From the NCBI GenBank assembly GCA_947627915.1, contig CANQXT010000003.1:1-49904 (forward strand): a stretch of DNA of 49,904 nucleotides, read 5' to 3'. The DNA is from an uncultured Bacilli bacterium (GTDB lineage: Bacteria; Bacillota_I; Bacilli_A; RF39; UBA660). Shown one piece after another: positions 1,193-46,674 of the stretch. A program made the translations under genes and the position numbers. Position 1 is the first letter of the stretch. The number at the start of each line of letters is the position of its first letter. The notes beneath the pieces are model-generated. The model searched no databases. It was not told the DNA's origin and saw nothing but the letters and a program-made list of their open reading frames with translations.

Positions 1193-3763
1193 ATGAAGAA
1201 GAGATTTTTAATAATAACCTTAATTATAATTGGAATAATATCTTTAACATTATCATTAACCTATAAGACTTATTATAACAAAATTGTTGGAGAAAAAAGT
1301 CCTTCTATAATTGGAGATAAGTTTGCAATTTATATAGAAGAAGATAATGGAGAATTTACGCCAACAAATAGAGATATGTTTCCAACACTAGGAGAAGGTT
1401 ATATATTAGATCATAGTGATTGTATAGATAGACATAGAAAAACTTTAGAAAGTCCAGTAATAGATATTGATCCCTATAATATAGCACACGTTTATACAAC
1501 AAATGCTTTATATTGTAATTTATATTTTAAAAAATATAGTTGGGAAGGAACAGAAGTAAAATTTAAATTTGAGAATAGTGGTCAAACAGTTCATGAAAGA
1601 AATCAAAAGTATCGAATAGAATGGACAATAGAAGGAGCAACAGAATACTGTATAACAGATGGAAGTAGTTGTGACTGGAAGACGATTCCCTATGAGATGG
1701 GAAAGAAGTTTTTAGAAGATAATATAGAAATACCAGGAGATAGTGGTCAAAAGACATATTATGTTAAATTAAAAACATTATTTACTGAACAAGAATCAAA
1801 TAGAGATGGATTATATTTACAATTAGATATAACACCACCAACATGTTCATTAAAAGTAGAGAATAATAAAATAGTATTTGCTAGAATACATGATGATCGA
1901 AGTGCAGAAGCGAATATAGTAAGAGGAATAAGTAGAACAAATACAACAACATATGGAAATATAAATTCCATAAATGTAAGTGGAACCGGTGAATATTATG
2001 GATATGTAAAAGATGAAGCCGGAAATGAAGGAAGATGTACTATAGATGTCCAAAATGATTATGGAGTTGCTTGTAGTGTAACTCAAACAAATTCATATCC
2101 AATATATTGTAATGTAACAAAAGAAAATCCACACCCAGTATATTGTAGTGTAACCAAAGAAAATTCTGAGCCAGTATACTGTAATGTAACAAGTGCAAAT
2201 CCTCATCCAGTATTTTGTGCTGTTACTGGAAATAAACCAATTTCAAAATATTGTGAGGTAAAAAGTACAAATCCTCATACAGTATATTGTAATGTAACTC
2301 AAACCAATTCTGAGTCAGTAAATTGTAAAGTAAATAAAACACTTATGACACCAATAAAATGTAGTGTCACAGATACAAAATCAGAGACAAAAAATTGTAC
2401 AGTTACACAAAAACTTGCCGATAAAAATACTTATTGTTATGTTACCAATACATATGATAGAACCCAATATTGTACTCAAACAAAATCTACACCTATCTCC
2501 GGATATACTTATATTGGTATACGTTGTAATTGTGGTTATTATCCATATCAAGATTCAATGCAAGTAGCCTTTAATGGAGTATCAACTTGTTCTCCAAATA
2601 ATTGGCAAAGTCCTTTTAATCCGTTTAATTATTATCATTCAGAGTATGAAATTAATTGTAGTACAGTATGTAGTTTAGCAAGAGATCCATCTCGTTATAG
2701 ATTTCCTTATACTAGTGGCTATATGGATGGTAATTATGAATTCTTTCTAAATAGCGTTTCATATCCACCAGCTGTAGTAGCATTTTGCTATTCAGTGCCA
2801 CAAGGAGTCGTATATACTTGTTCAAATGGTAATATATGTAATTACGCTGGATGTTGTAGTAATCAAGTATGTGGTAATGTATCATATGATTATGTTTGCT
2901 CAAATGGAATAACATATTCAAATGATAGTAGTGCTTGTACAAATTCTATTTGTAGTTCTAAAGAACAATATAAATGTTCTGATGGTAATATATATGAAAC
3001 GAGAAATGAGTGTACAAGTAAGAGTTGTGGAACTAAAGATAGTTATGTTTGCTCAGATGGAAGTACCTATGATACGAAGAGTACTTGTGAAAATAAACAA
3101 TGTGGTACAAATTATAGTTATTTATGTTCTGATGGTGAAACATATAGTACATCAAGTGATTGTACCAATAAACAATGTGATACAAAGAATACATATTCTT
3201 GTTCAAATGGAAAACAATATAGTACATCAGATGAGTGTACAAGTAGGCAATGTGGTACAGATTATACATATTCATGTTCCGATGGAAAAGAGTATAATAC
3301 ATCAGATGAGTGTACAAGTAAGACATGTAATGTGGAATATCAATATTCATGCTCAAATGGAAAAGAATATCCTTCATTAACTACATGTACAAATCAACAA
3401 TGTGATACCAGATATACATATTCTTGCTCAGATGGAGAAGAGTATAATTCTCAAAGTAGTTGTACAAATTCGGTATGTGATACTAAGTACACATATTCAT
3501 GTTCAAATGGTGAAGAATATAACTCATCAAGTACTTGTACAAGTACCCAATGCGATACCAGATACACATATTCATGCTCAAATGGAAGTGAATATGATTC
3601 ACAAAGTACATGTACCAATACCCAATGTTCTACAGGATATACCTATACATGTTCTGATGGTTCAACATATGATAACCAAAATAGTTGTATATCTAAAGAA
3701 TGTGGTAGAGCTTGTCCAACTGGTTATACTAAAGATGGTGGTTATTGTTATAAAGAAGTATAG
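1193..3763 (+). CDS. Membrane-anchored or secreted cysteine-rich repeat surface protein
   Basis: 856 aa. N-terminal basic plus hydrophobic segment, a small FAIY...C...YCxLYF domain, Ig-like DxTPPTC modules, two Cys repeat arrays, and a terminal CPTGYTKDGGYCYK motif. Confidence 0.85.
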   Translation: MKKRFLIITLIIIGIISLTLSLTYKTYYNKIVGEKSPSIIGDKFAIYIEEDNGEFTPTNRDMFPTLGEGYILDHSDCIDRHRKTLESPVIDIDPYNIAHVYTTNALYCNLYFKKYSWEGTEVKFKFENSGQTVHERNQKYRIEWTIEGATEYCITDGSSCDWKTIPYEMGKKFLEDNIEIPGDSGQKTYYVKLKTLFTEQESNRDGLYLQLDITPPTCSLKVENNKIVFARIHDDRSAEANIVRGISRTNTTTYGNINSINVSGTGEYYGYVKDEAGNEGRCTIDVQNDYGVACSVTQTNSYPIYCNVTKENPHPVYCSVTKENSEPVYCNVTSANPHPVFCAVTGNKPISKYCEVKSTNPHTVYCNVTQTNSESVNCKVNKTLMTPIKCSVTDTKSETKNCTVTQKLADKNTYCYVTNTYDRTQYCTQTKSTPISGYTYIGIRCNCGYYPYQDSMQVAFNGVSTCSPNNWQSPFNPFNYYHSEYEINCSTVCSLARDPSRYRFPYTSGYMDGNYEFFLNSVSYPPAVVAFCYSVPQGVVYTCSNGNICNYAGCCSNQVCGNVSYDYVCSNGITYSNDSSACTNSICSSKEQYKCSDGNIYETRNECTSKSCGTKDSYVCSDGSTYDTKSTCENKQCGTNYSYLCSDGETYSTSSDCTNKQCDTKNTYSCSNGKQYSTSDECTSRQCGTDYTYSCSDGKEYNTSDECTSKTCNVEYQYSCSNGKEYPSLTTCTNQQCDTRYTYSCSDGEEYNSQSSCTNSVCDTKYTYSCSNGEEYNSSSTCTSTQCDTRYTYSCSNGSEYDSQSTCTNTQCSTGYTYTCSDGSTYDNQNSCISKECGRACPTGYTKDGGYCYKEV
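2066..2503 (+). repeat. 12 tandem ~12-aa (36-bp) coding repeats, one Cys each (VYCNVTKENPHP-like)
   Basis: Units counted in the translation: VACS, IYCN, VYCS, VYCN, VFCA, KYCE, VYCN, VNCK, IKCS, KNCT, TYCY, QYCT. Confidence 0.9.
2807..3712 (+). repeat. 12 tandem ~25-aa (75-bp) coding repeats with three conserved Cys each (YTYSCSNGEEYNSSSTCTSTQCDTR-like)
   Basis: Twelve YxCS[ND]G units counted from VVYTCSNG to YTYTCSDG...CGRA. Confidence 0.92.
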
Positions 3764-5789: not shown

Positions 5790-7076
5790 ATGCTTTTCGT
5801 TTCAATTTCTGTATTAATTATTTTAACATTAATATTATTTAGTTATTTTGTTTTTGGCAAATTTAAATTTTTATATGATTCAAATATTAAATTAATATTA
5901 CATATTATAATATCTATTATTTTATGTATTGTAACCCACTATTATGTATATGAAATAGATCGGATTTTGATATATACTGTATTAGGATTGTATAGTTGTG
6001 TTTTATTAGTTTATTTATTAAATAAAAATTATCATAATTATAAAAATAGTATTACTGTACTAAATAATAATATTAAAGAAAATAAATTACAAAATAAAAT
6101 AATATTATTAGGGTTATTTATAATTAATGATATATTTTGTTTTTCTATTATCCATGTAGATATTAAGTCATTAAGTATAATAGTAATGCTTCTTTATTTA
6201 ATATCTTATTTTCTTTTCTATATTTCAATAATAGTTATACCTATACTTTTAGGTAATATAATAGCTAGATTAAGATTATTTAAAAAAGATAAAAAGATAT
6301 ATCATAGTCTTCAACATCCCTATTTTAGAGAGTTACCAAATAATTATGGTATTGGTATAAATACTATTTTAATGGATTCAGTTATGGAAAATGAAAAAGA
6401 TTTACTAGCAGTTATTTTAGATTTAGCTGCTAAAAGATATATAAATTTAAAAAAAGATCATAATGGTTATAAAATAGTTCTTTTAAAAGATATAGATGAT
6501 AAATTATACCAAAATGAACAATATATCTTATCTTTAATAAAAGAAAAAGAATTAAAGAATATAAATTATAATGATTGGTATAATTTATGTATTGAAGATG
6601 GTGTTAAAGAAGATTTATATATTCCTAAAAATATTAAAAGAATTTTTAATTTATCGATGAGTCCTCTAGAAATATTTATATGTATTTTAATATGGGGTAT
6701 ACCATCATTTATTATGTTTATGTCTATAGATTCCATTTTATTTATGTTTATAGATTTATTAATTCCTATAATAATTATTATTATATTTATATTAAGTTAT
6801 AAAAGAAATATGAGAAGAAATAATTTAACGAGAACTAAAAAGGGTGTTAAAGAATATAAAAAATTATTAGCATTTAAAAGTTTTATAAAAGATTTTGGTA
6901 ATTTTGATGAAAGAAGTATTGATGAGATAGTTTTATGGGACTACTATTTATCATATGCCCAAGTATTTGGTTTAACAAAGGAAATAATGCAAACAGGGTA
7001 TAATGAATTAGTAAATAATGCATCATTCCAAATTGATAATATTGATAATATTACTTTAGATAATATTAAATATTAA
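5790..7076 (+). CDS. DUF2207-like membrane protein (paralogue 1)
   Basis: YFRELP...AVILDLAAKRYI...RTKKG...LLAFKSFIKDF...LWDYYLSYAQVFG resembles the DUF2207 C-terminal region. Several TM segments. Confidence 0.75.
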   Translation: MLFVSISVLIILTLILFSYFVFGKFKFLYDSNIKLILHIIISIILCIVTHYYVYEIDRILIYTVLGLYSCVLLVYLLNKNYHNYKNSITVLNNNIKENKLQNKIILLGLFIINDIFCFSIIHVDIKSLSIIVMLLYLISYFLFYISIIVIPILLGNIIARLRLFKKDKKIYHSLQHPYFRELPNNYGIGINTILMDSVMENEKDLLAVILDLAAKRYINLKKDHNGYKIVLLKDIDDKLYQNEQYILSLIKEKELKNINYNDWYNLCIEDGVKEDLYIPKNIKRIFNLSMSPLEIFICILIWGIPSFIMFMSIDSILFMFIDLLIPIIIIIIFILSYKRNMRRNNLTRTKKGVKEYKKLLAFKSFIKDFGNFDERSIDEIVLWDYYLSYAQVFGLTKEIMQTGYNELVNNASFQIDNIDNITLDNIKY

Positions 7077-7142: not shown

Positions 7143-8651
7143 GTGGTAATGAATAATGGAGTAAATAATACTGTTTGTCCAAATTGTGGAGCAAGCATAT
7201 TAAATGGGGCTACTTTTTGTGGCAATTGTGGTTATAATTTGAATAATAATATTGGTGTAGTTAATAATGTTATTAATTCTATGCCTAGTGAACCTCCTAA
7301 AAATAATAAATTTCAAGATAAAAAGAAATTATTAATAATAATAGGAGTAGTACTTGTCGTTTTAGTAGGAGGTTTTATAGCATTTAAAGTATTAAATCAT
7401 TCATCTAATAAAACTAAAATGTTTTCAGATGATCAATTAATACCGATAAAAAAAGATTCTAAATATGGTTATATAAATACCGATGGTAAAATAGTAATAG
7501 AACCTATATATTTAGATGTTAGTGAATTTTATGGTGATTATGCTGTTGTGGAAAAAGAAGAAGATAAATCACAAATAATTGATAAGAATGGTAAAGTTGT
7601 AATTGATTCATCATATAATCCCGAATATTTTGAAGATTTAGAAGTATGGTTAATTAAGTCTAGTTTATATGATAAGAATTTAAAACAAATATCTGGTGAT
7701 GGTTATAAAATTTATCATATCGAAGACAATTATTTTCAATGGAATGATAGAGAAAGTAAAACGGTAGGTATAATGAATGAAAAAGGTAAAATATTATATA
7801 AATATACTTTCCAATCTGATGAAAATTTTATGTCAATTGATTCTTCAGATAAGGATGAAGATTTAAAAGATTTATATTGTGTAGTGAATATTGAAAACAA
7901 AAAATATGGTATTGTTAATTGTAAAAATGGTAAATTAGTTTATGATTTTGGCGATAAAAAAATATTTAGTAATGGTGATAATACTTTTAAAATATATAAT
8001 TCTTCAATGAGTGAAGTTTTAGATAATATTTTTATAAATAATGATAAAGTTTTATATCATAGTAATGGTAAAAATGTTGGCTTAACTTATCGTAATGGTT
8101 ATTTACATATAAATGATTATAGTAATTATCAAACTTCTTATCTTGATATTAAAACTGGTAAAATAGTAGATAAAGTAGATAATACAACTACTGTTGAATT
8201 AAGTGATTAGGAAAAAAAGAATGATATGACTGTATATGAGTGTGAAACTGGTGTAGGACTTAAAAGTAAAGATAAAGTAGTAGTAGATTGTGTTTGGGAT
8301 ACTATTCGAATATTTGATTATCCAGTATATGACTATTTAGTTTCTAAAAATAAAAAATATATTATAACTAAAAAAGATGATAGTTATTATTTAGTAGATT
8401 TAAAAAATAGTAAAACAATAAAAGAGTTTAAAACTAAACGTTTTAGAAATTCTAATAACAGTCCATTTATATTTTATGATGATGAAAATGATAATTATGT
8501 AATATATAATGTAGTTACTGATAAAGAAGTTACAGTTAAAAATGATGTTGATATATGGTTAAGATCAAATTATGTTATTGTGGAAGAAGATAATAAATAC
8601 AATTACTATAATAGTGATTTGAAATTAATTTATACTGCAAGTGAAAAATAA
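7143..8651 (+). pseudogene. Zinc-ribbon + TM + WG-repeat protein split by an in-frame TAG at 8208-8210
   Basis: ORFs 7143-8210 and 8226-8651 are in the same frame, joined by TAG GAA AAA AAG AAT GAT ATG. N-terminal CPNCG..FCGNCG ribbon and a KYGYINTDGKIVIEPIY WG repeat. Confidence 0.75.
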
Positions 8652-8698: not shown

Positions 8699-9592
8699 AT
8701 GAATGAAAATTTAAATAATAATAATTTAACTAATAAGGTTTGTCCAATATGTGGAACAAGTAATTTACCTAATACTAATTTTTGTATTAAGTGTGGAAAT
8801 AATTTGAGTGTTGCCAGTCAACCAATTCCAGATACAAATAATAATATTCCTAATCAACAACCAGTTATGAATAATAATATGAATAATCAAAATGTTAATG
8901 TTGCTCCTACTAATGTGAATGTATCAATGAATAATGGTTTAAAAATGAACTTAGTCCAATATTTTATTCAAAGTATAATTAAACCATTTGATAATTATAT
9001 AAATAATGAAAGTAATTTAAGTGATATTAAAGAAGTAGGTATTTTATCTGGTATAGTAGTATTATTCTTAACAATTATGAATTTATTATCTAAGATGATA
9101 TCTGCAGTAAGAGTTAAATCATTATTTTCAACAGAAGTATCTTGGGTATGGGAAAATTTAAAAAATATATCTTATGTAAAAGTTATTGGTACTAATTTAT
9201 TAGTATATGCTGGTATATTAGTAGCTATCGCAGGTGTTTATTTCTTAGCTAGTTTAGTTATTAAAAAGAGTCCTAATTTTGTTAAATTATTAGGTATTGC
9301 TACTACTAGTATTATTCCATTTGCTATTTGTTATGGTTTATTATCACCAGTACTATCTATGATAAATACTACAATAGGTATGGTAGTAACAGTTATTGGG
9401 TTTGTATATTCTTTAATGATTTTAATAGAACTTATAAATGATAGTATTGTTATTGAAAATAAAAATACAAGAATATTAATTCATGTTATATGTTTATCTA
9501 TTTTAATAATAGGTGGTGGATATATAATTTATAAATCTATTATGTCAACTATAACAAGTGGTTTAGGTTCACTTGCTGGATTATTAAGATAA
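8699..9592 (+). CDS. Zinc-ribbon + Yip1-like membrane protein
   Basis: CPICG..FCIKCG, an N/Q/P-rich linker, IIKPF, then about 5 TM helices. Confidence 0.75.
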   Translation: MNENLNNNNLTNKVCPICGTSNLPNTNFCIKCGNNLSVASQPIPDTNNNIPNQQPVMNNNMNNQNVNVAPTNVNVSMNNGLKMNLVQYFIQSIIKPFDNYINNESNLSDIKEVGILSGIVVLFLTIMNLLSKMISAVRVKSLFSTEVSWVWENLKNISYVKVIGTNLLVYAGILVAIAGVYFLASLVIKKSPNFVKLLGIATTSIIPFAICYGLLSPVLSMINTTIGMVVTVIGFVYSLMILIELINDSIVIENKNTRILIHVICLSILIIGGGYIIYKSIMSTITSGLGSLAGLLR

Positions 9593-11961: not shown

Positions 11962-13173
11962 ATGAAAAAAACGAGTGCAAATTATGATAAAAGTAAATAT
12001 ATTTTATTAGCAATAATTTTATATATAGTTATTATAATTATTGATATATTATGTATTAAAGGTATATTTAAAATATTAAATACTTCTAATGGTGAATTAT
12101 TAATAAATATGCGAATAATTCCTCTATGTATGGTAAGTATTATTCTTACCATTTCTATAATCGCTGGATTTATGGGAACAATTAAAGGTTTACTTCATAA
12201 ACTATTTACTAAAGAAAAAAGTATTAAAAATGATCTTTATTTAAGAGAACTACCTAATAATTTTGGAATAGGAGTAACGACTCTTTTATTTGATTCTAAA
12301 ATAGAGAATGAAAAGGATATTGTGGCTATTATTTTAGATTTATGTGCTCGTAAATATTTATCTTTAACAAAAACGAATGATAAATATATTATAAAAATAT
12401 TAAAGCAAATAGATACAAATTTATTAGATAATGAAAAATATATTATGGAATTATTAATTAATAATAATATTAAAAATATTGATTATTATAAGTGGTATAA
12501 TCTTTGTGAAAATGATGGAAAAAGTTTAAATTTATATTATCGATATACTTCTAAAATAGAAAATAATCGTAAAACTGATAGTATGGATGATATATTACAT
12601 CGAATTAAGAAAAGAAGTATTATTTTAAGTATTATTGTATTTATTATCTTTTCTTTATATACATTTTTCACAAATAATATTTGGAGTGTTGTTCCTAAAT
12701 TAAGTGGAACATATAGTAATACGGCAATTGGTACTGGTATGTTAGCTGTTCTTGTGGCTATTTCTATATCTGGTATTATTGTGGCAGTAATAAGTTATTT
12801 TATTATATACATAATTTTATATTTATGGGAAACGATAAAAACATTTGTAACGTTTAGTTTTCAATCTGGAAGTAATATTAAAAAAAGCAGTTACAATAAT
12901 GTTATGAGTAATAATTTAACGAGGACTAAATATGGTGAAAATGAATATCAAAAATTAGTTTCTTTTAGGAATTTTATTAAAGACTTTGGCGCATTTGCCG
13001 ATAGAGAAGCTAAAGAAGTAGTAATATGGGATCGATATTTATCATATGCTCAAGTATTTGGTTTAACAAAGGAAATAATGCAAACAGGATATAAAGAATT
13101 AATTGATAATGCATCATTTCAAATAGATAATATTGATAATATAAATTTAGATAATATTAAAGTCGAATATTAA
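11962..13173 (+). CDS. DUF2207-like membrane protein (paralogue 2)
   Basis: YLRELPNNFG, AIILDLCARKYL and WDRYLSYAQVFGLTKEIM. Confidence 0.75.
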   Translation: MKKTSANYDKSKYILLAIILYIVIIIIDILCIKGIFKILNTSNGELLINMRIIPLCMVSIILTISIIAGFMGTIKGLLHKLFTKEKSIKNDLYLRELPNNFGIGVTTLLFDSKIENEKDIVAIILDLCARKYLSLTKTNDKYIIKILKQIDTNLLDNEKYIMELLINNNIKNIDYYKWYNLCENDGKSLNLYYRYTSKIENNRKTDSMDDILHRIKKRSIILSIIVFIIFSLYTFFTNNIWSVVPKLSGTYSNTAIGTGMLAVLVAISISGIIVAVISYFIIYIILYLWETIKTFVTFSFQSGSNIKKSSYNNVMSNNLTRTKYGENEYQKLVSFRNFIKDFGAFADREAKEVVIWDRYLSYAQVFGLTKEIMQTGYKELIDNASFQIDNIDNINLDNIKVEY

Positions 13174-13198: not shown

Positions 13199-14542
13199 AT
13201 GTATTTTTTGATTACAAGTGTTTTTACTTTAGCATTGATATTATTTTTAAAAAACATTGGGGATGTTATAAGTATTTTTGCAAGTAAAAATAAATTAGAA
13301 AGAGATAGTTATTGTCGGGAATTTTTAGCTAAAGATCAATATTTTGATTTAAAAATTATGCTATCTTTTATATTACTAATTCTTTTAATTTATGTACGTT
13401 ATTTTACTTCATTAAAAAATAATGATTTTATCTTTTTAGTATTAAATATTATTTTATTTTATATGGCTATTTCTCTAAAAAAAATTATATGTTTAATAAT
13501 TATTAAATATAATGATTTAAAAAGAAAAGCACAAGTAACTAATCATTCTGGGAGTAAAACTCCGTCTTTTATAATACATATTCTATTAGCTTTTGGAGCT
13601 TTATTATTGTGTTCCACTTGGTCTACAATGGGTAATATGCTAGGCTTTTGGCTATTAGTTATTGTAATTCCGTCTTTAATTGGTGAATTAATTGCTATTA
13701 TTAAAAAAAGTATAGATAATAAAAAAATATTGCAAATAGATAATAGTATATATTTAAGAGAACTTCCTAATAATTATGGTATTGGAGTAAATTCGTTACT
13801 TATAGATTCTAATATAGAAAATGATAAAGATATAACTGCAGTTATTTTAGATTTATGTGCGAAAGGATATTTATCAATTAGAAAAGAAAATGATAAATAT
13901 ATCGTAAAAGTATTAAAAAATATTGATAATTATTTATTGAATAATGAAAAATATATATTAGAAAATATTATAAATAATAATATTAAAAATATCGATTATC
14001 AAATTTGGTATGATTTGTGTGTTGAAGATGGTAAAAATTTAAATTTTTATGTACCAGTTAAGAAAAAGAAAACATTAAAAGATATAATTATTGATTTTCT
14101 TAAAAAAATTAATAGTATTCAATGGAATCCGTTAATTGTGGCATTTTTGGGAATATTTGTTTTAATAATTATGTGTATTTGTTTATTAGTATTATTGGTT
14201 CTAGCATTTGTTTATTTGTTATATCGTTTATTTTGTTTTCCTTTTGTAATTATCAATAGTTATAATACAGAAATAAATAATAACTTAAAAAGAACTGATA
14301 ATGGAATAGTAGAATATCGTAAATTAATGGCATTTAGAAATTTTATTAAAGATTTTGGAGCATTTGCAGATAGAGAAGCTAAAGAAGTAGTCATATGGGA
14401 TCGATATTTATCGTATGCTCAAGTATTTGGTTTAACAAAAGAAATAATGCAAACAGGATATAAAGAATTAATTGATAATGCATCATTTCAAATAGATAAT
14501 ATTGATAATATTAGTTTAGATAATATTGAAATATTAAAGTGA
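13199..14542 (+). CDS. DUF2207-like membrane protein (paralogue 3)
   Basis: YLRELPNNYG and AVILDLCAKGYL. The C-terminal region is nearly identical to paralogue 2. Confidence 0.75.
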   Translation: MYFLITSVFTLALILFLKNIGDVISIFASKNKLERDSYCREFLAKDQYFDLKIMLSFILLILLIYVRYFTSLKNNDFIFLVLNIILFYMAISLKKIICLIIIKYNDLKRKAQVTNHSGSKTPSFIIHILLAFGALLLCSTWSTMGNMLGFWLLVIVIPSLIGELIAIIKKSIDNKKILQIDNSIYLRELPNNYGIGVNSLLIDSNIENDKDITAVILDLCAKGYLSIRKENDKYIVKVLKNIDNYLLNNEKYILENIINNNIKNIDYQIWYDLCVEDGKNLNFYVPVKKKKTLKDIIIDFLKKINSIQWNPLIVAFLGIFVLIIMCICLLVLLVLAFVYLLYRLFCFPFVIINSYNTEINNNLKRTDNGIVEYRKLMAFRNFIKDFGAFADREAKEVVIWDRYLSYAQVFGLTKEIMQTGYKELIDNASFQIDNIDNISLDNIEILK

Positions 14543-38638: not shown

Positions 38639-38706
38639 GAAATATTTTATTAAAAAAGGAGTTATTTTAGTTTAAAAAATATAAACTAAAGAAGGAAGTA
38701 AATTTT

Positions 38707-39123
38707 ATGTTTTGTCCTAATTGTGGTACTAACTTACCTGATAATGCTGAATTTTGTTCTAATTGTGGTACTAATTTAAATAATTATAAAACGATACCTA
38801 ATTTAAATGAAAATAAAAAAATAAATAATCATAAAATAAAAGATTTTATAATTAAATATAAAAAAATTATATGTATATGTATCATAGTTTTTATAATATT
38901 ATTTATAGGGGTATTTTCTTTTAATAAGTTATATGATTATACAAAGATAGATTGGGATAAAAACTATGGGGATATAAATGTAACTCGAAATAAATTTAGT
39001 AAATTTACTATTGATTATACGGCTTGGGTTAATGAATATAATTATACATTTACTTATGGAGAAGATAAGAATGGTAATCCAAAAGAAGTATCATTAGAAA
39101 TAGAGCAACCAATAATTGAATAA
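38707..39123 (+). CDS. Zinc-ribbon + TM protein with a short extracellular part
   Basis: MFCPNCG..FCSNCG and one TM segment. Confidence 0.75.
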   Translation: MFCPNCGTNLPDNAEFCSNCGTNLNNYKTIPNLNENKKINNHKIKDFIIKYKKIICICIIVFIILFIGVFSFNKLYDYTKIDWDKNYGDINVTRNKFSKFTIDYTAWVNEYNYTFTYGEDKNGNPKEVSLEIEQPIIE

Positions 39124-39925: not shown

Positions 39926-42742
39926 ATGGATAAAATAGTAATTAGAGGAGCAAGAGAAAATAATTTAAAAAATATTGACTTAGAACTTCCTAAAAATAAA
40001 TTAATCGTTATGACAGGAGTATCAGGTTCTGGAAAAAGTAGTTTAGCTTTCGATACTATTTATGCTGAAGGAGAAAGAAGATATGTGGAAAGTTTATCAG
40101 CATATGCTAGACAATTTATTGGTTCAGGAGATAAACCTGATGTTGATTCTATTGAGGGACTTTCACCAAGTATTTCGATAGATCAAAAGACAACAAATAA
40201 AAATCCAAGATCTACTGTGGGTACAATTACGGAATTATATGATTATTTAAGATTATTATTTGCAAGAATTGGTGTACCATATTGTCCTACCCATAAAATA
40301 CCTATTAAAAGTCAAAGTATTGAAGAAATGACTAATAAAATTTTAGCTATGGAAGAAGGTACTAAAATTGAGATTTTTGCTCCAGTAGTAAGAGGAGAAA
40401 AAGGTACTCATAAAGATTTAATATTAGATTTACAAAGTAAAGGCTATACAAAAATAAAAGTTAATGGGGTTATGTATAACGCTTCAGATGAAATAACTTT
40501 AGAGAAAAATGTTAAAGATGATATTTATGTTTTAGTTGATAAACTTCCTATAAGTGTTGACGAAAGAAGCAGAATATTTGAAGCTTTAGAAGTTAGTTGT
40601 AACTTAGCTAATGGATTAGTTATTATAAGAGTTAATGATGAAGAAGATATTTTAATGAGTGAAAATTATGCTTGTCCTTATTGTAATTTTTCAATTAGTG
40701 ATTTAGAGCCAAGAATGTTTTCGTTTAATTCCCCATATGGAGCATGTGATGATTGTAAGGGACTTGGTACTAAACTTAAAATAAGTGAAGAATTATTAAT
40801 ACCTGATAAAAATAAAAGTATTAATAAAGGAGCAATTATTGCTATTAACTTAGATAATAATATGTATATGAGTAGTTTAAATACAGTTGCTGAACATTAT
40901 CATATTGATTTAGATATACCAGTTAAGGATATGCCAAGAAAAGATTTAGATATTATTTTATATGGTACTAATGATATTATGGATTTTCATTATGTAGCTA
41001 AAAATGGTAGTACTAGAGATACAAAATCTAAATATGAAGGAATAATTAATAATTTAGAAAGAAGGTATTTAGAAACTAATAGTTCTTGGATAAGAGAGTG
41101 GATTGAAGGATTTATGGTAGAATCAACTTGTAATACTTGTCATGGTACTAGATTAAAAGATGAAATTTTAGCTGTTAAAATAAATAAGAAAAATATATAT
41201 GAAATGACAGAAATGGCCATTGATGAATTAAGAGATTTTTTAAAAAATTTAAAATTAACTCATGAAGAAGAAGAAATAAGTAGTTTATTATTAAAAGAAA
41301 TAATCGTTAGATTAGATTTTCTAATTAATGTTGGTTTAAATTATTTAACTTTATCTCGAAGCGCCGCTACTTTATCTGGTGGAGAAGCTCAAAGAATAAG
41401 ACTTGCTACGCAAATAGGTAGTAAATTATCTGGTGTCTTATATGTTTTAGATGAACCATCCATTGGACTTCATCAAAGAGATAATGAAAAATTAATTAAT
41501 TCTTTAAAAGAAATGCGTGATTTAGGAAATACTTTAATAGTTGTGGAACATGATACAGATACAATGCTTGCTGCAGATTATTTAGTAGATATTGGTCCAG
41601 GTGCTGGAGATAAAGGTGGATATGTTGTTGCCTCAGGTACTCCAGAAGAAGTAATGCAAAATGATAATAGTATTACAGGCAGATATTTGTCCGGTAAAGA
41701 AAAAATTGAAATTCCTAAAAAACATCGTAAAGGAAATGGTTTATATTTAGAAGTAAAGGGAGCAAAAGAAAATAATTTAAAAAATATTAATGTTAAATTT
41801 CCATTAAATAAATTTATTTGTGTAACTGGTGTTTCTGGATCAGGTAAAAGTACTTTAATTAATGAAATATTATATAAAACTTTACATAAAGAAATATATA
41901 AATCAAAAGATATACCTGGTAAATGTAAAGAAATTAAAGGTATTGAAAATATAGATAAAGTAGTTAATATTAGTCAAGACGCTATCGGTAGAACACCAAG
42001 AAGTAACCCTGCTACTTATGTTGGGGTATTTGATGATATTAGAGATGTTTTTGCTAATATGAAAGAAGCCAAAGTTCGTGGGTATGATAAGAGTAGATTT
42101 TCATTTAATGTTAAAGGTGGAAGATGTGAAGCTTGCTGGGGTGATGGTGTTAAAAAAATTGAAATGCATTTCTTACCTGATGTATATGTACCTTGTGATG
42201 TATGTAATGGTAAACGTTATAATAAAGAAACATTAGATGTTAAATTTAAAGGTAAAAGCATTGCTGATGTTTTAGATATGCGAGTTAGTGAAGCATTACC
42301 ATTCTTTGAAAATATTCCTAAAGTAAGAGATAAATTACAAGTTATGCATGATGTTGGACTTGATTATATAACATTAGGTCAAGGTGCTCCAACACTATCT
42401 GGTGGAGAAGCTGGTAGAGTAAAACTTGCTAAAGAATTACAAAAGAAAGCAACAGGAAAATCAGTATTTATTCTTGATGAACCAACAACCGGTCTTCATT
42501 CAGCTGATATTAAAAAACTATTAGAAGTTTTAAATAGAATAGTAGATAATGGAGATACAGTTATAGTTATTGAACATAATTTAGATGTTATTAAACAAGC
42601 AGATTATATTATTGACTTAGGTCCTGAAGGTGGTAAATTTGGTGGTGAAGTAATTACAACAGGTACTCCAGAAGAAGTAAGTAAAGTTCCTGAATCTTAT
42701 ACGGGTATGTTTTTAAAGAAAATATTAGAAAAAGATAAATAA
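39926..42742 (+). CDS. uvrA: Excinuclease ABC subunit A
   Basis: MDKIVIRGARENNLKNI, two GVSGSGKS Walker A motifs, LSGGEAQRIRLATQIG and zinc fingers. Start set to the ATG at 39926. Confidence 0.99.
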   Translation: MDKIVIRGARENNLKNIDLELPKNKLIVMTGVSGSGKSSLAFDTIYAEGERRYVESLSAYARQFIGSGDKPDVDSIEGLSPSISIDQKTTNKNPRSTVGTITELYDYLRLLFARIGVPYCPTHKIPIKSQSIEEMTNKILAMEEGTKIEIFAPVVRGEKGTHKDLILDLQSKGYTKIKVNGVMYNASDEITLEKNVKDDIYVLVDKLPISVDERSRIFEALEVSCNLANGLVIIRVNDEEDILMSENYACPYCNFSISDLEPRMFSFNSPYGACDDCKGLGTKLKISEELLIPDKNKSINKGAIIAINLDNNMYMSSLNTVAEHYHIDLDIPVKDMPRKDLDIILYGTNDIMDFHYVAKNGSTRDTKSKYEGIINNLERRYLETNSSWIREWIEGFMVESTCNTCHGTRLKDEILAVKINKKNIYEMTEMAIDELRDFLKNLKLTHEEEEISSLLLKEIIVRLDFLINVGLNYLTLSRSAATLSGGEAQRIRLATQIGSKLSGVLYVLDEPSIGLHQRDNEKLINSLKEMRDLGNTLIVVEHDTDTMLAADYLVDIGPGAGDKGGYVVASGTPEEVMQNDNSITGRYLSGKEKIEIPKKHRKGNGLYLEVKGAKENNLKNINVKFPLNKFICVTGVSGSGKSTLINEILYKTLHKEIYKSKDIPGKCKEIKGIENIDKVVNISQDAIGRTPRSNPATYVGVFDDIRDVFANMKEAKVRGYDKSRFSFNVKGGRCEACWGDGVKKIEMHFLPDVYVPCDVCNGKRYNKETLDVKFKGKSIADVLDMRVSEALPFFENIPKVRDKLQVMHDVGLDYITLGQGAPTLSGGEAGRVKLAKELQKKATGKSVFILDEPTTGLHSADIKKLLEVLNRIVDNGDTVIVIEHNLDVIKQADYIIDLGPEGGKFGGEVITTGTPEEVSKVPESYTGMFLKKILEKDK

Positions 42743-42822: not shown

Positions 42823-42977
42823 TAATAAGGAAGAGAAAATTCAAAGTTGGATTTGACTTGAAATTTTTTGAGTTTAGTATTATCATAATTATTGCCCTGA
42901 CTTGGGGCGTTTAGTATTATCGAAAGGAGAAGTTACCGCTTCTCCTTTCACATGCCCTCAAGTTCCTTTCTTTTTTT
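42823..42977 (+). ncRNA. Candidate structured non-coding RNA
   Basis: GC-enriched intergenic block with a perfect 11-bp stem GAAAGGAGAAG/CTTCTCCTTTC, an outer stem GACTTGGGGCGT/ATGCCCTCAAGTT, a duplicated GTTTAGTATTATC and a terminal T run. Promoter-like elements lie upstream. Confidence 0.45.
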
Positions 42978-43096: not shown

Positions 43097-43123
43097 TTGA
43101 CACCGGGGGGGGTATTATATAAT
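43097..43123 (+). promoter_or_regulatory. Consensus sigma-A promoter with a poly-G (G8) tract in a 15-bp spacer; candidate phase-variable promoter
   Basis: TTGACA (43097-43102), CC, G8 (43105-43112), TATTA, TATAAT (43118-43123). Confidence 0.8.
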
Positions 43124-43187
43124 TATCTTATAAAATAGAGAGAAACAAAATAGATAAAAGATATCAACATAAAAGAAAGGGTTAAGA

Positions 43188-43631
43188 ATGAAAAAGATAA
43201 TTATAGGAGTGCTAGTAATAATAGAAATATTTTCTTTGTATATGATGTATCAAATAAATAATAGTAAAAGTTTAAATGAAGTAAGTATAAAAAATAATAA
43301 AATAAATAAAGATGTCTTTGCCGTATATTGGGATGAAAATGGAGATGGAACGTATACAGAATATACACAAACAACATGGCCTAGTTCTGGTTATACATTA
43401 AATTTAATAAAAACAGAATGTATGAATGAAAAAGGAGATAAACTAGAAAATCCAGAAATAACTTTCAATCATGGAACAATAACATTAAGTAATACTGAAA
43501 CAACATATTGTATATTGTATTTTGAAAAATTAAAAGCAAGTATATTACTATACGATAATCAAATAAAAAATAGAACAAGTTGTACAGATATTCAATGTGC
43601 AATAGATGAACTATATAAAGCAAGTTATTAA
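43188..43631 (+). CDS. Small membrane-anchored surface protein, first gene of the CLec operon
   Basis: N-terminal hydrophobic segment; FAVY...C...YCILYFEK domain similar to the N-terminal domain of 1193-3763; C-terminal IQCAIDELY motif. Confidence 0.8.
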   Translation: MKKIIIGVLVIIEIFSLYMMYQINNSKSLNEVSIKNNKINKDVFAVYWDENGDGTYTEYTQTTWPSSGYTLNLIKTECMNEKGDKLENPEITFNHGTITLSNTETTYCILYFEKLKASILLYDNQIKNRTSCTDIQCAIDELYKASY

Positions 43632-43644
43632 AAGGAAGATAGAT

Positions 43645-45114
43645 ATGAAGAAGATAATAAAAGATAACTATCCAATATTGATTGGAATATTAATAGGAAT
43701 AATATCAATAAGTGGAGTATATGCAGCAAGTACAATGATAGAAAGTGATGAAGTAACATATGATAATACAACAAGTCATGGAGATTATACAAATGTACAA
43801 GAATCAATAGATGAATTATATGAGATAAATAAAATACATAAAGATGAATGGCAAGATCCAACATTACAAGCAAGTGGTAATTACCCATTATTAACCGGAG
43901 ATTTAATCCCAGTTGAAATAAAACCAAATGGAGATGTATATTATGCCAATAAACATAGTGAATGGTATAACTATAGTGAAAAGAGATGGGCTAATGCCGT
44001 AATATTAAAAGCAGAGAAAAAAGAAACATATTCAGAAGGGCAAAAGATAAAAGAAGAAGATATAAATGGATATTTTGTCTGGATACCAAGATATAAATAT
44101 CAAGTATGGCATTATAATAGTGATAGTGATGCAATAGATGGAAATACATTAAAAAATGAAAATTATAGTAATTCAACAACGCAAGCATTAGGTAAAGCAA
44201 GATTAATAAATATCGAGTTTGAAAGTAAAAGTACTTCAAAAAGTGAAGCAACTGATAATACCAAAAATGGAGACTGGTTAACCCATCCAGCATTTACATT
44301 AGGAAGTAAAGAATTAAGTGGCATATGGGTAGGAAAGTTTGAAACAGGAAAAGAATCAGATAATGTAATAGTAAAGCCTAATGTAACATCATTTACGAAT
44401 AAAACAGTAAAAGAATTCTTTGAAGCTGGAAAAAAATATAATCAAACATTAGATAGTCATATGATGAAGAATACAGAATGGGGAGCAGTAGCATACTTAT
44501 CACATTCTGAATATGGAATAGGAACAGAAGTAAGAATAAATAATTATGAAGGATATAAAACTGGATATAGTGCAGCAGCAAATACTGATCAAAGTAGTTA
44601 TAATTATAATAGTAATAAAGGAGAATATGGAACTATAGATGATATAACCCAACAATATAATACTCCAACAGGATACTTAGCAAGTACAACTGGAAATATA
44701 ACAGGTGTATATGATATGTCCGGAGGAGCATGGGAATATATGGCAGCTTGTATGGAAAATACACCAAAAGATAGTGGTTTTTCTACAGAAGACTTAGAAA
44801 AAGAAATGAATGCTGGTTATATAGATAAATATCCAAGTGATACTAACTCATATAGTAACAGAATCTTAGGAGATGCAACAGGAGAGATGGGACCATTCTA
44901 TAATTATTATGATAAAGATAATGGTAAACGTTATCATAATGTTTGGTACGCTGACTATTCGGGCTTCGTTGCCTCTTCTTACCCGTGGTTCGGTCGAGGA
45001 GGCGGTTACGACAATGGCGTCTTGGCCGGCCAGTTCGACTTCGGTGGGTACAACGGTGGTGCGAATGGCCGCATTGGGTTTCGCCTCGTCCTTTCACCTG
45101 AAAATAATTCATAA
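43645..45114 (+). CDS. Surface CLec/FGE-sulfatase-fold protein, putative DGR target
   Basis: Start moved to the ATG at 43645, after AAGGAAG. Signal/TM ending GVYA, then VWIPRY, HPAF, WVGKFE, EWGAVAYL, GVYDMSGGAWEY and PWFGRGG...GFRLVL. Confidence 0.88.
   Translation: MKKIIKDNYPILIGILIGIISISGVYAASTMIESDEVTYDNTTSHGDYTNVQESIDELYEINKIHKDEWQDPTLQASGNYPLLTGDLIPVEIKPNGDVYYANKHSEWYNYSEKRWANAVILKAEKKETYSEGQKIKEEDINGYFVWIPRYKYQVWHYNSDSDAIDGNTLKNENYSNSTTQALGKARLINIEFESKSTSKSEATDNTKNGDWLTHPAFTLGSKELSGIWVGKFETGKESDNVIVKPNVTSFTNKTVKEFFEAGKKYNQTLDSHMMKNTEWGAVAYLSHSEYGIGTEVRINNYEGYKTGYSAAANTDQSSYNYNSNKGEYGTIDDITQQYNTPTGYLASTTGNITGVYDMSGGAWEYMAACMENTPKDSGFSTEDLEKEMNAGYIDKYPSDTNSYSNRILGDATGEMGPFYNYYDKDNGKRYHNVWYADYSGFVASSYPWFGRGGGYDNGVLAGQFDFGGYNGGANGRIGFRLVLSPENNS
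44941..45100 (+). other. Putative DGR variable region (VR), with the IMH expected at its 3' end
   Basis: Hand count: 94/160 G+C and 19/160 A, inside an otherwise strongly A-rich gene. Variable codons mostly end in C/T, as expected for codons derived from AAY. Confidence 0.8.
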
Positions 45115-45149
45115 GTTACTTAAATACTAATAGAAAGAAGAATATATAA

Positions 45150-46607
45150 ATGAAGGAAAAAACAAAGAATAAAATAAAACTATTAATAGGAATAATAATA
45201 GGATTAATATTATCAGTAAGTGGAGTATATGCCACAAGTTCAATGATAGAAAGTGAAGAAGTAACTTATGATAATAAAAACAGTGATGGAAAATATAATA
45301 ATGTCCAATCATCAATAGATGAATTATATGAAAGAAGTGGAATACATAAGGAAGAATGGACTGATAAAGAATTAAACGGAAATGATCCAGTAATAACAGG
45401 AGATTTAATCCCAGTTGAAATAAAACCAAATGGAGATGTGTATTATGCAAATAAACATAGTGAATGGTATAACTATAGTGAAAAAAGATGGGCTAATGCT
45501 GTAATATTAAATGAAGGAAAAAAAGAGACATATTCTGTAGGACAAAAAATAAATGAAAATGATATAAATGGATATTTTGTCTGGATACCAAGATATAAAT
45601 ATCAAATATGGCACGCAACAAGCGAAGATGGAACACCAGATGGAAATACATTAATAAATACAAATTATGGTAATTCAACAACACAAGCATTAGGTCAAGC
45701 CAGATTAATAAATATTGAGTTTGAAAGTAAGGATACACCAAAAAGTGAAGCAAAAGCTGAAACTAAAGATGGAGATTGGATAACCCATCCAGCATTTACG
45801 TTAGGAACAAAAGAATTAAGTGGAATATGGGTAGGAAAGTTTGAAACAGGTGGAGATGCAACTAATGTAATAGTAAAACCAAATGAAATATCATGGCGAG
45901 GTGCAAATGTAAAAGCATTCTTTGATGCTGGAAAAAAATATAATCAAACATTAGATAGTCATATGATGAAGAATACGGAATGGGGAGCAGTAGCATACTT
46001 ATCCCATTCTGAATATGGAATAGGAACAGAAGTAAGAATAAATAATAATGAAGAATTTAAAACCGGATATAGTGCCGCAGCTAATACAGATCAAAGTAGT
46101 TATAAAGGAGATACAGGTAAGAGTGATGAAAAAGATAAAACACAACCATATAATACGCCAACCGGATACTTAGCAAGTACAACTGGAAATATATCAGGGG
46201 TGTTTGATATGTCCGGTGGCGCGTATGAATATATGGCAGCTTGTATAGAAAATACTCCAGGAGATAGTAGTTTTTCTACAGAAGACTTAGCAAAAGAAAT
46301 GGATAAAGGCTATATAGATAAATATCCAAGTGATAGTGATACAACAACATATAGTAAAAGAATATTAGGAGATGCCACTGGAGAAATGGGCCCATTCTAT
46401 AGTTATTATGAAAAAGATGGTTCGTTGCATAATCATAGTGCATGGTACGCTGATGATGCATATTTTGCTAACTCTTCTTTTCCATGGTTTTATCGAGGAG
46501 GCTTTAATGGTAATGGAATCTTGGCAAGTCAATTTACTTTTCATAGATACAATGGTATTGCTTACAATTCGCTTACTTTTCGTCTTGTTCTTTCTCCAAC
46601 TAATTAA
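45150..46607 (+). CDS. Second CLec/FGE-fold surface protein (tandem paralogue) with a degenerate VR-like end
   Basis: Long near-identical blocks shared with 43645-45114; GVFDMSGGAYEY and PWFYRGG...TFRLVLSP. Confidence 0.88.
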   Translation: MKEKTKNKIKLLIGIIIGLILSVSGVYATSSMIESEEVTYDNKNSDGKYNNVQSSIDELYERSGIHKEEWTDKELNGNDPVITGDLIPVEIKPNGDVYYANKHSEWYNYSEKRWANAVILNEGKKETYSVGQKINENDINGYFVWIPRYKYQIWHATSEDGTPDGNTLINTNYGNSTTQALGQARLINIEFESKDTPKSEAKAETKDGDWITHPAFTLGTKELSGIWVGKFETGGDATNVIVKPNEISWRGANVKAFFDAGKKYNQTLDSHMMKNTEWGAVAYLSHSEYGIGTEVRINNNEEFKTGYSAAANTDQSSYKGDTGKSDEKDKTQPYNTPTGYLASTTGNISGVFDMSGGAYEYMAACIENTPGDSSFSTEDLAKEMDKGYIDKYPSDSDTTTYSKRILGDATGEMGPFYSYYEKDGSLHNHSAWYADDAYFANSSFPWFYRGGFNGNGILASQFTFHRYNGIAYNSLTFRLVLSPTN

Positions 46608-46646
46608 CTCGTCAACGAAGACGTTAAAATAGTAAAACTTAACCCT

Positions 46647-46674
46647 GAAAGAGAATGACTCTCTTTCTTTTTTT
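46647..46674 (+). terminator. Terminator of the CLec operon
   Basis: GAAAGAGA-atgac-TCTCTTTC followed by T7. Confidence 0.8.

Follow-up and report, generated by a model that had tools for sequence, protein, structure and literature searches.

Treponema TvpA and the Mtd protein of a Bordetella phage are classical variable proteins of diversity-generating retroelements (DGRs), and the Vlp proteins of Mycoplasma join a conserved N-terminal anchor to a variable external part. Here we describe a locus with likenesses to both, a unit of three genes (A, B and C) at positions 43097-46674 of the window, by which we mean the whole 49,904-nucleotide stretch analysed, contig C3 of assembly G000 (1.29 Mb, 90 contigs, 24.5% G+C, 92% completeness). 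As with Vlp of M. hyorhinis, maa2 of M. arthritidis and vmm of M. mycoides, its genes would belong to a surface multigene family with conserved 5' regions; in those mycoplasmas a repeat tract in the promoter spacer changes length and transcription goes on or off, and PMC2268961 treats such spacer insertions and deletions as an established switch of vlp, maa2 and vmm. The type V pilus tip adhesins of Bacteroides also have DGR-variable C-type-lectin-fold heads at the end of anchor or stalk operons and cassettes with the accessory genes avd and msl; type V strand exchange of lipoprotein pilins attaches their heads to the pilus. Classical DGR variable proteins such as TaqVP share with gene B a C-terminal variable region (VR) matched by a template repeat (TR), adenine-specific changes and, probably, the FGE/C-type-lectin fold.

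We read the unit as one copy of a dispersed phase-variable surface-adhesin operon in a reduced-genome, uncultured gut bacterium, and give this reading a probability of roughly 0.55. The original prediction, drawn from the letters of the window, had proposed a switchable promoter, a membrane anchor and two hypervariable lectin-fold subunits linked by a shared motif; as an overall model it is largely supported. The features of the unit and its upstream boundary are as follows.

42893-42975, forward strand: structured terminator-like element 3' of uvrA, the upstream boundary of the inserted unit.
43097-43123, forward strand: promoter cassette, with -35 TTGACA at 43097-43102, CC, G8 at 43105-43112, TATTA, and -10 TATAAT at 43118-43123.
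43188-43631, forward strand: gene A, 147 aa, with an N-terminal membrane helix, an Ig-like beta-sandwich and a C-terminal segment.
43539-43616, forward strand: A-type segment, residues 118-143, SILLYDNQIKNRTSCTDIQCAIDELY, with two conserved Cys.
43645-45114, forward strand: gene B, 489 aa, with a signal peptide, segment, probable FGE-type C-type-lectin-fold domain and C-terminal variable region.
43747-43821, forward strand: B-type segment, residues 35-59, DEVTYDNTTSHGDYTNVQESIDELY, matching the tail-fibre repeat consensus.
44947-45094, forward strand: variable region of B, 59% G+C in a genome of 24.5%, differing from the template repeat mainly at adenines.
45150-46607, forward strand: gene C, 485 aa, paralogous to B (74% identity) and in tandem with it, sharing its signal peptide and segment.
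45255-45329, forward strand: segment of C, residues 36-60, EEVTYDNKNSDGKYNNVQSSIDELY.
46446-46593, forward strand: decayed counterpart of the variable region in C, 34.5% G+C.
46647-46674, forward strand: intrinsic terminator closing the unit, with an 8-pair stem and 5-nt loop (hairpin 46647-46667) and a T run.

The sequence and a terminator scan agree with the earlier description of a tight three-gene unit between a G8 promoter and a terminator, the intergenic gaps being 13 nt between A and B and 35 nt between B and C, and each of the three products does begin with a hydrophobic segment. We place the start of gene B at 43645 rather than 43606 because of its ribosome-binding site and the alignment with 11 relatives. 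The view of the unit as a singular system did not hold: about ten copies exist, inside a much larger family.

All three products carry a segment of the form YDN..VQ..IDELY, and the motif strings were found where first described, at residues 122-143 of 147 in A, 39-59 in B and 40-60 in C. A profile of the segment matched 22 of the 3022 open reading frames (ORFs) of the genome at E <= 1e-4, nine of A type and 13 of B/C type, with the next ORF at E = 1.6; within this genome the motif is thus confined to these two protein types (22/22). Its position differs by type: in A it forms the C-terminus, and in the B family it directly follows a signal peptide with invariant V (-3) and A (-1).

The same profile was run against 1.84 billion representative proteins, where it matched 2857 at E <= 1e-3, many of them with tandem copies. 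The tandem unit measures about 32-36 residues, has the consensus YDNT.SGL.A.NVQ.AIDE[LV], and occurs in up to 52 copies, the maximum being in a 5298-aa protein (among P0005-P0154). Seven of eight tested repeat proteins match the tail-fibre family phrog_2137. Relatives lie on 107 viral contigs; of four viral contigs looked at more closely, three encode a repeat-bearing protein that falls into a tail-fibre PHROG family. The segments of A, B and C each score as a single unit of this repeat, so the likeness to fibre proteins suggested at the outset has a concrete basis. No Pfam family was found for the repeat, nor a solved structure among PDB sequences (best E = 0.28, chance level), nor its motif strings in the literature; a tblastn search with a repeat protein against phage records gave no match, and motif alignment in the viral contigs confirmed none of the 80 stretches matched by pattern.

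The arrangement of the segment on two neighbouring proteins recurs in other genera. At nine of the 11 loci examined there (L068, L069, L073, L074, L078, L081, L082, L084 and L091), a protein of about 196 aa ends in the segment, and the next one or two genes encode proteins that carry it at their start, behind a signal peptide. Two loci depart from this: at L090 no such neighbour follows the segment-ending protein, and L086 encodes a pilin and lacks the segment. With A, the ~196-aa proteins have residues 112-144 alone in common (55% identity); they bear another N-terminal domain and a SipW-type signal, and the SipW-type peptidase of these loci scores 69 bits against TIGR02228 (cut-off 51.85). 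Their downstream heads vary from locus to locus, being either lectin-fold domains or a domain of ~260 aa that is unrelated to these.

Gene B has at least 7999 homologues, and we examined the architecture of 28 sampled from the best 120. A signal peptide and segment are present in 24; the remaining four (565-610 aa) lack the segment, and their head is fused to an N-terminal domain of ~165 aa. No A-like gene precedes the fused genes of L199 and L200, and at L201 (G105:C1) and L204 (G311:C3), in other genera, a type IV pilin N-terminus is fused to the same lectin-fold head (N_methyl, 30.9 and 33.5 bits, cut-off 21.2). A homology between the N-domains of the fused relatives and TasA-like proteins was considered and set aside as weak. 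When residues 22-75 of B were searched alone, four proteins were returned, all from this genome.

A stalk-head joint formed through the segment is the most economical reading, because of the pairing across genera, the fusions that lack the segment, the fused genes that stand alone and the weak complex score given below. The anchor-plus-head arrangement first proposed thereby gains comparative support, from segment exclusivity, cross-genus pairing and fused relatives, and we give docking through the segment about even odds. A complex predicted from residues 26-147 of A and 28-110 of B scored 0.36, against 0.00 for the best control, from shallow alignments, with runs sharing at least 81% of contacts and partner pLDDT (predicted local distance difference test) of at least 57. 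In calibration, 58 of 80 solved complexes and two of 110 mismatched pairs attained the scoring mark; at 0.60 or below lay seven of the 80 and both passing mismatches, and a pass in that range is false more frequently than true when the pairing was not likely beforehand. Multimer prediction, foreseen for combinations of all three products, covers the A-B pair here and favours it weakly over its controls.

The strongest competing explanation, which we consider rather unlikely, is that the segment is a fibre-type homotrimerisation unit in each protein, with A a separate protein, B and C secreted or self-anchored, and the adjacency of the genes a matter of co-regulation. The tandem occurrence of the segment within single chains of phage proteins suggests a structural shaft unit and speaks for this, as do the weakness of the complex prediction and the hydrophobic N-terminus of B, which could be an uncleaved anchor. 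However, A-type segments, with two conserved Cys and always C-terminal, are distinct from B-type segments, always just after the signal peptide; the two types remain neighbours across genera even where the rest of A has been replaced; and relatives in which stalk and head are covalently fused lack both segments and have no A-type neighbour.

The promoter of the unit has the organisation of Vlp-type promoters, with a repeat tract between the -35 and -10 hexamers (TTGACA-CC-G8-TATTA-TATAAT). Its 15-nt spacer holds the G8 tract, and throughout the cassette family the spacer measures n + 7 nt, that is, 15 nt with G8, 16 with G9 and the optimal 17 with G10. The genome contains 43 runs of at least seven G or C, and 42 of them lie inside the cassette AAAACTTGACACC-G(n)-TATTATATAATTATCTTATA.. 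or close variants; from a base composition of 24.5% G+C, about 0.15 runs of G8 or C8 are expected. Tract lengths among the 42 are G8 in 35, G9 in three, G10 in one and G7 in three (two of these cut by contig ends). A regular expression found 39 complete cassettes, each 5' of a gene, and all copies of A (10/10) sit 76-92 nt 3' of one.

Among other genomes of the genus, the exact cassette was found in two of 24 (a first sample), and a generalised pattern in 18 of 42, with up to 40 copies per genome and tracts of G6 to G10, while a reversed-pattern control found none. JGI metagenome contigs gave no match to the promoter pattern. Tract length is polymorphic across paralogous cassettes and species (G6 to G10), and G8 and G9 are mixed within one genome in both G004 and G047. 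The flanks are near-invariant as the tract varies from 6 to 10, within genomes and between species. The G tract in the promoter spacer was therefore correctly recognised from the window, and its length differs among some 40 paralogous cassettes and in 18 of the 42 genomes. Very probably, judging from these sequences, the poly-G tract acts as a promoter switch, and we infer switching at the promoter of this unit as well.

Beside these cassettes, tracts at two fused loci in other genomes may be recorded. L201 has a G10 tract beside TTGACA, about 45 nt 5' of the start codon. At L202 (G233:C11), two genes are preceded by tracts of G9 and G8 whose conserved surroundings are of another kind (..ACT-Gn-TGCGATAC..); one encodes a fused stalk-lectin, the other a protein in which a signal peptide is combined with a segment-like stretch and a glycine-rich domain. 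Genes for msl and avd lie nearby.

With G8 in 35 cassettes, most copies would be off at once, which fits antigenic variation and would also fit a fixed regulatory element. That the tract is such a fixed promoter or operator element, its length differences being old substitutions or assembly noise, nevertheless seems improbable to us. The predominance of G8 (35/42 cassettes) is what such an element would show, homopolymers are error-prone in assemblies, and several contigs end at the tract; but the tract varies from 6 to 10 between nearly invariant flanks, within genomes and between species, and the spacer falls at 15-17 nt, where a single base matters and where the mechanism is established elsewhere.

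Gene A heads a family of its own. It has nine paralogues in the genome (86-91% identity), and in all seven loci not cut by a contig end a lectin-fold gene directly follows it; two B-type genes stand in tandem at loci C3 and C38. Its first ~115 residues also form the N-terminus of more than 20 larger proteins (320-830 aa) of the same genome, at 55-64% identity; of ten larger members scanned against Pfam, five carry putative binding heads, namely ConA-like lectin (two), ALK/LTK glycine-rich (two) and GLUG (one), and five gave no match. The A-type N-terminal domain is present in every one of 24 further genomes of the genus and absent from all 16 genomes sampled from other genera of the class. Orthologues of A in other species have the same length and 33-35% identity, and their segment is invariant; in the alignment of A, 11 of the 24 invariant columns, both Cys among them, lie within the last 28 residues.

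In an AlphaFold2 model of A (pLDDT 75), residues 2-24 form a helix and 44-114 a beta-sandwich, followed by a short strand (119-122) and a second helix (135-142). Fold searches with it gave generic Ig-like matches and no family (Foldseek best E = 0.17; VIA best Z = 3.4), a protein atlas search with A gave no usable match, and scans of A, B and C against PHROGs and NCBIfam gave nothing meaningful. Two assignments of A were tried and rejected. It is not a type IV pilin: its N-terminus, MKKIIIGVLVIIEI, has no G|FTLIE methylation motif and no N_methyl match; the genome does encode a prepilin peptidase and a PilB-like ATPase. Nor is it, in this genome, a TasA-type subunit, as the L078, L082 and L091 proteins had no TasA-like homologue here by blastp. 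Locus L086 of another genus encodes a type IV pilin-like protein of 168 aa (MNKKGFTLIE..) that matches the alignment of A in its C-terminal part (30% identity); it lies directly 5' of three genes that resemble, by N-terminal sequence, msl, avd and a reverse transcriptase (RT).

Could A be a functionless remnant, the truncated stalk and duplicated segment left when an ancestral stalk-segment-head gene was split? L084, with an internal segment between a stalk-like domain and a 250-aa C-terminal domain, offers a model of such an ancestor, and the first ~115 residues of A resemble the N-termini of the larger members (55-64% identity). We think this very improbable, given seven intact full-length copies of A (86-91% identity) besides two cut by contig ends, same-length orthologues (33-35% identity) in other species that keep the segment invariant, and functional equivalents of A in other genera.

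The heads encoded by B and C are probably lectin-like in fold. Residues 213-368 of B match PDB entry 5vf4 (E = 2.9e-7), identified in the search listing as the solved Thermus aquaticus DGR variable protein TaqVP, and the Pfam family FGE-sulfatase matches the two heads at 20.2 and 20.6 bits, below its 23.3 cut-off (E = 5e-4 for B). The signal peptide of B comprises residues 1-27 and ends in ..VYA, with V25 and A27 invariant in 12 sequences.

A DGR cassette in the order TR-msl-avd-RT lies on contig C18, outside the window. Its genes beside the template repeat score 62 bits (RVT_1), 58.6 bits (bAvd) and 41 bits (MutS_I-like Msl), and the MutS-like Msl is a known DGR accessory (PMC5758913). The genome therefore holds the RT, accessory protein and template repeat of a DGR system on a contig other than that of the window. 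The template repeat (G000:C18:18483-18630(-), 148 nt) is 3' of a B-type gene and 5' of the MutS-like gene. Compared with it, the variable region of B differs at 17 of 34 adenine sites and six of 114 other sites (Fisher p = 1.2e-8), and this adenine bias makes B a genuine DGR target, present or recent, in trans. We hold this with great confidence, and with nearly as much that the variable region of C has decayed: in C the differences fall on 15 of 34 adenine sites and 35 of 114 others (p = 0.15), and most are C>T or G>A.

As the counterpart in C is decayed, only one subunit of the unit is a present or recent retroelement target. Of the two hypervariable heads originally proposed, B shows the adenine-specific signature and C does not; likewise, retroelement-driven diversification stands in that B matches a template repeat, with the correction that the retroelement is on contig C18 and not in the window. 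Genome-wide there are 16 VR-like regions and one template repeat, eight of the regions having at most 6/114 non-adenine mismatches and eight at least 13; no second template repeat was found among the 17 VR/TR matches. B and the target on C47 share several non-adenine differences from the C18 template. Further RT genes occur at G000:C82:270-2722 and C51:5695-6654; that on C82 is shortened, and two MutS-like small genes and an Avd-like gene accompany it, to judge by N-terminal sequence. The C82 genes may be remnants of other DGRs.

The sole G10 cassette in the genome (G000:C18:20813-20822), with a 17-nt spacer and predicted to be on, heads an A-plus-lectin locus, and TR, msl, avd and RT continue it in the same orientation. 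A terminator separating the two parts was not detected, so the retroelement might itself fall under the poly-G switch.

The weakest of the alternatives, a prophage remnant with a tail fibre and an Mtd-like receptor-binding protein, we find scarcely credible: the segment is a tail-fibre repeat and DGR lectin-fold targets include the receptor-binding protein Mtd of a Bordetella phage, yet all three products have secretion or anchor segments, the 3.9-kb uvrA-lgt insertion contains no phage genes, and the cassette is common to about 30 non-phage-like surface-protein genes with ConA-like, GLUG or glycine-rich heads.

If the unit is a copy of a phase-variable adhesin operon, it would work as follows. 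The three genes would be co-transcribed from a sigma-70-type promoter, and slipped-strand changes in its tract would give it a spacer of 15 nt with G8, the state of this unit (promoter weak or off), 16 nt with G9, or 17 nt with G10 (promoter on). Gene A would supply a small membrane-anchored Ig-like stalk or adaptor ending in a ~26-residue unit of the fibre repeat. B and C would be secreted and cleaved after V-x-A, leaving the segment followed by an FGE-type C-type-lectin-fold head, and the segment of A would associate with that of B or C, so that otherwise unanchored heads are held on the stalk. The C-terminal ligand-binding region of B would be rewritten, now or recently, by the C18 DGR, which would serve about eight dispersed targets in trans, and C would be a fixed paralogue that has lost its coupling to the DGR.

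Several observations weigh against this reading. G8 predominates among the cassettes (35). The complex prediction supports A-B docking weakly, and the segment could equally be a homotrimerisation unit within each protein. The N-domains of the fused relatives, compared with A or with its counterparts in other genera, reach hhalign probabilities of 5-33%, at which homology is not demonstrable. Cleavage of the hydrophobic N-terminus of B is inferred from the conserved V-x-A, and the AlphaFold2 model of B (12 sequences) is unusable at pLDDT 37. The last points concern the retroelement. Target recognition by DGRs requires a GC-rich 3' end of the VR followed by a hairpin. The conserved 3' end is present in B; no hairpin follows its VR (z = +0.99), and the C18 target has a 12-bp stem (z = -3.75). 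With the hairpin missing and six non-adenine mismatches, retrohoming into B may be inefficient or past.

The unit lies between uvrA, which ends at 42742, and lgt, which is followed by a thioredoxin-reductase gene. In relatives lgt comes directly after uvrA (73-nt gap in G013) or a different gene occupies that spot, and from this adjacency the 3.9-kb unit is an insertion into a conserved gene neighbourhood; no convincing target-site duplications or flanking repeats were found around it. The element at 42893-42975 is probably the terminator of uvrA. A hairpin was detected at 42893-42909, and the whole element folds into a nested stem-loop followed by a T run, with a GC-containing inner stem of 11-12 bp (z = -3.75; 0/200 shuffles equally stable). 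An Rfam scan of the whole window, this element included, found no match.

Elsewhere in the window, an 856-aa ORF (1193-3763) has two repeat arrays: one of eight tandem copies of 75 nt (3011-3685), which encode 25-residue units with a Cys in each, and one of seven 36-nt repeats (2017-2405). Three paralogous genes at 5790-7076, 11962-13173 and 13199-14542 share ~300-nt blocks that are 65-87% identical, indicating another multigene family. A similar zinc-ribbon-like N-terminus (CPNCG...CGNCG) opens three genes, at 7147-7242, 8712-8807 and 38684-38779.

We did not find in the literature the combination of these three layers in one system, nor a split architecture joined by a tail-fibre repeat, nor a poly-G regulon of ~40 genes in a 24.5% G+C genome; supplements to DGR surveys could list similar loci. 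This 1.3-Mb genome appears to give about 40 loci to switchable surface proteins, and one adhesin type in it would be varied by three layered mechanisms, namely promoter slippage, choice of paralogue and retroelement mutagenesis in trans. It would be a compact natural model for surface variation in reduced-genome gut commensals. Comparison of the split form with the fused ones (pilin-head, stalk-head) yields a hypothesis, open to direct test, about the mounting of DGR-variable lectins on cells of Gram-positive type, and a very common, undescribed phage tail-fibre repeat receives a possible role.

Two further ideas, taken jointly, are speculative: that the segment is a modular non-covalent joint for interchangeable heads, and that DGR hypermutation is itself phase-variable. 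Were the first true, one membrane stalk could present B or C, or lectin or other heads in other genera, and the end-to-end assembly of phage fibres would have been borrowed by the cell. Were the second true, one slip of a poly-G tract would turn on both an adhesin and a retroelement that rewrites about eight dispersed adhesin genes.

Set against known systems, the loci of other genera recall TapA-SipW-TasA of Bacillus, in that counterparts of A and B are preceded by genes for a SipW-type peptidase, a DUF5305 protein and a protein with a weak likeness to TasA/camelysin (E = 5e-4 at best). A of this genome instead has a plain transmembrane helix, and neither a TasA-like nor a DUF5305 homologue emerged here from blastp searches with the proteins of L078, L082 and L091. 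One SipW-type peptidase is encoded, at C14, and a sub-cut-off DUF5305 trace with two internal stops (C6:13510-13776, 21 bits, E = 1.1e-4) is not beside it. Phage tail-fibre proteins (PHROG 2137, 8147 and 24210), of whose repeat the segments of A, B and C each score as one unit, carry it in tandem in long proteins, whereas here it is single, at the C-terminus of A and the mature N-terminus of its neighbour.

The promoter layer is like the Vlp-type switches of Mycoplasma as far as comparison goes, and the retroelement layer would be a standard Avd/Msl DGR with unusually many remote targets. Compared with Vlp, the tract here is poly-G in a 24.5% G+C genome and known from sequence; the anchor is a transmembrane helix with an Ig-like domain, not a lipoprotein signal; and the heads are folded binding domains, not repeats, one subfamily being also a DGR target. 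Compared with classical DGRs, the target is remote, on a contig other than the retroelement's, with about eight fresh and eight decayed VRs, and B, unlike their variable proteins, has an N-terminal fibre segment and a partner gene as well. Wu et al. give at most eight targets in one DGR cassette. The Bacteroides system, finally, differs in how the head is held: here a single-pass stalk and a separate head protein would be joined through the tail-fibre-type segment that each of them carries, and up to 16 dispersed target paralogues are combined with poly-G promoters.

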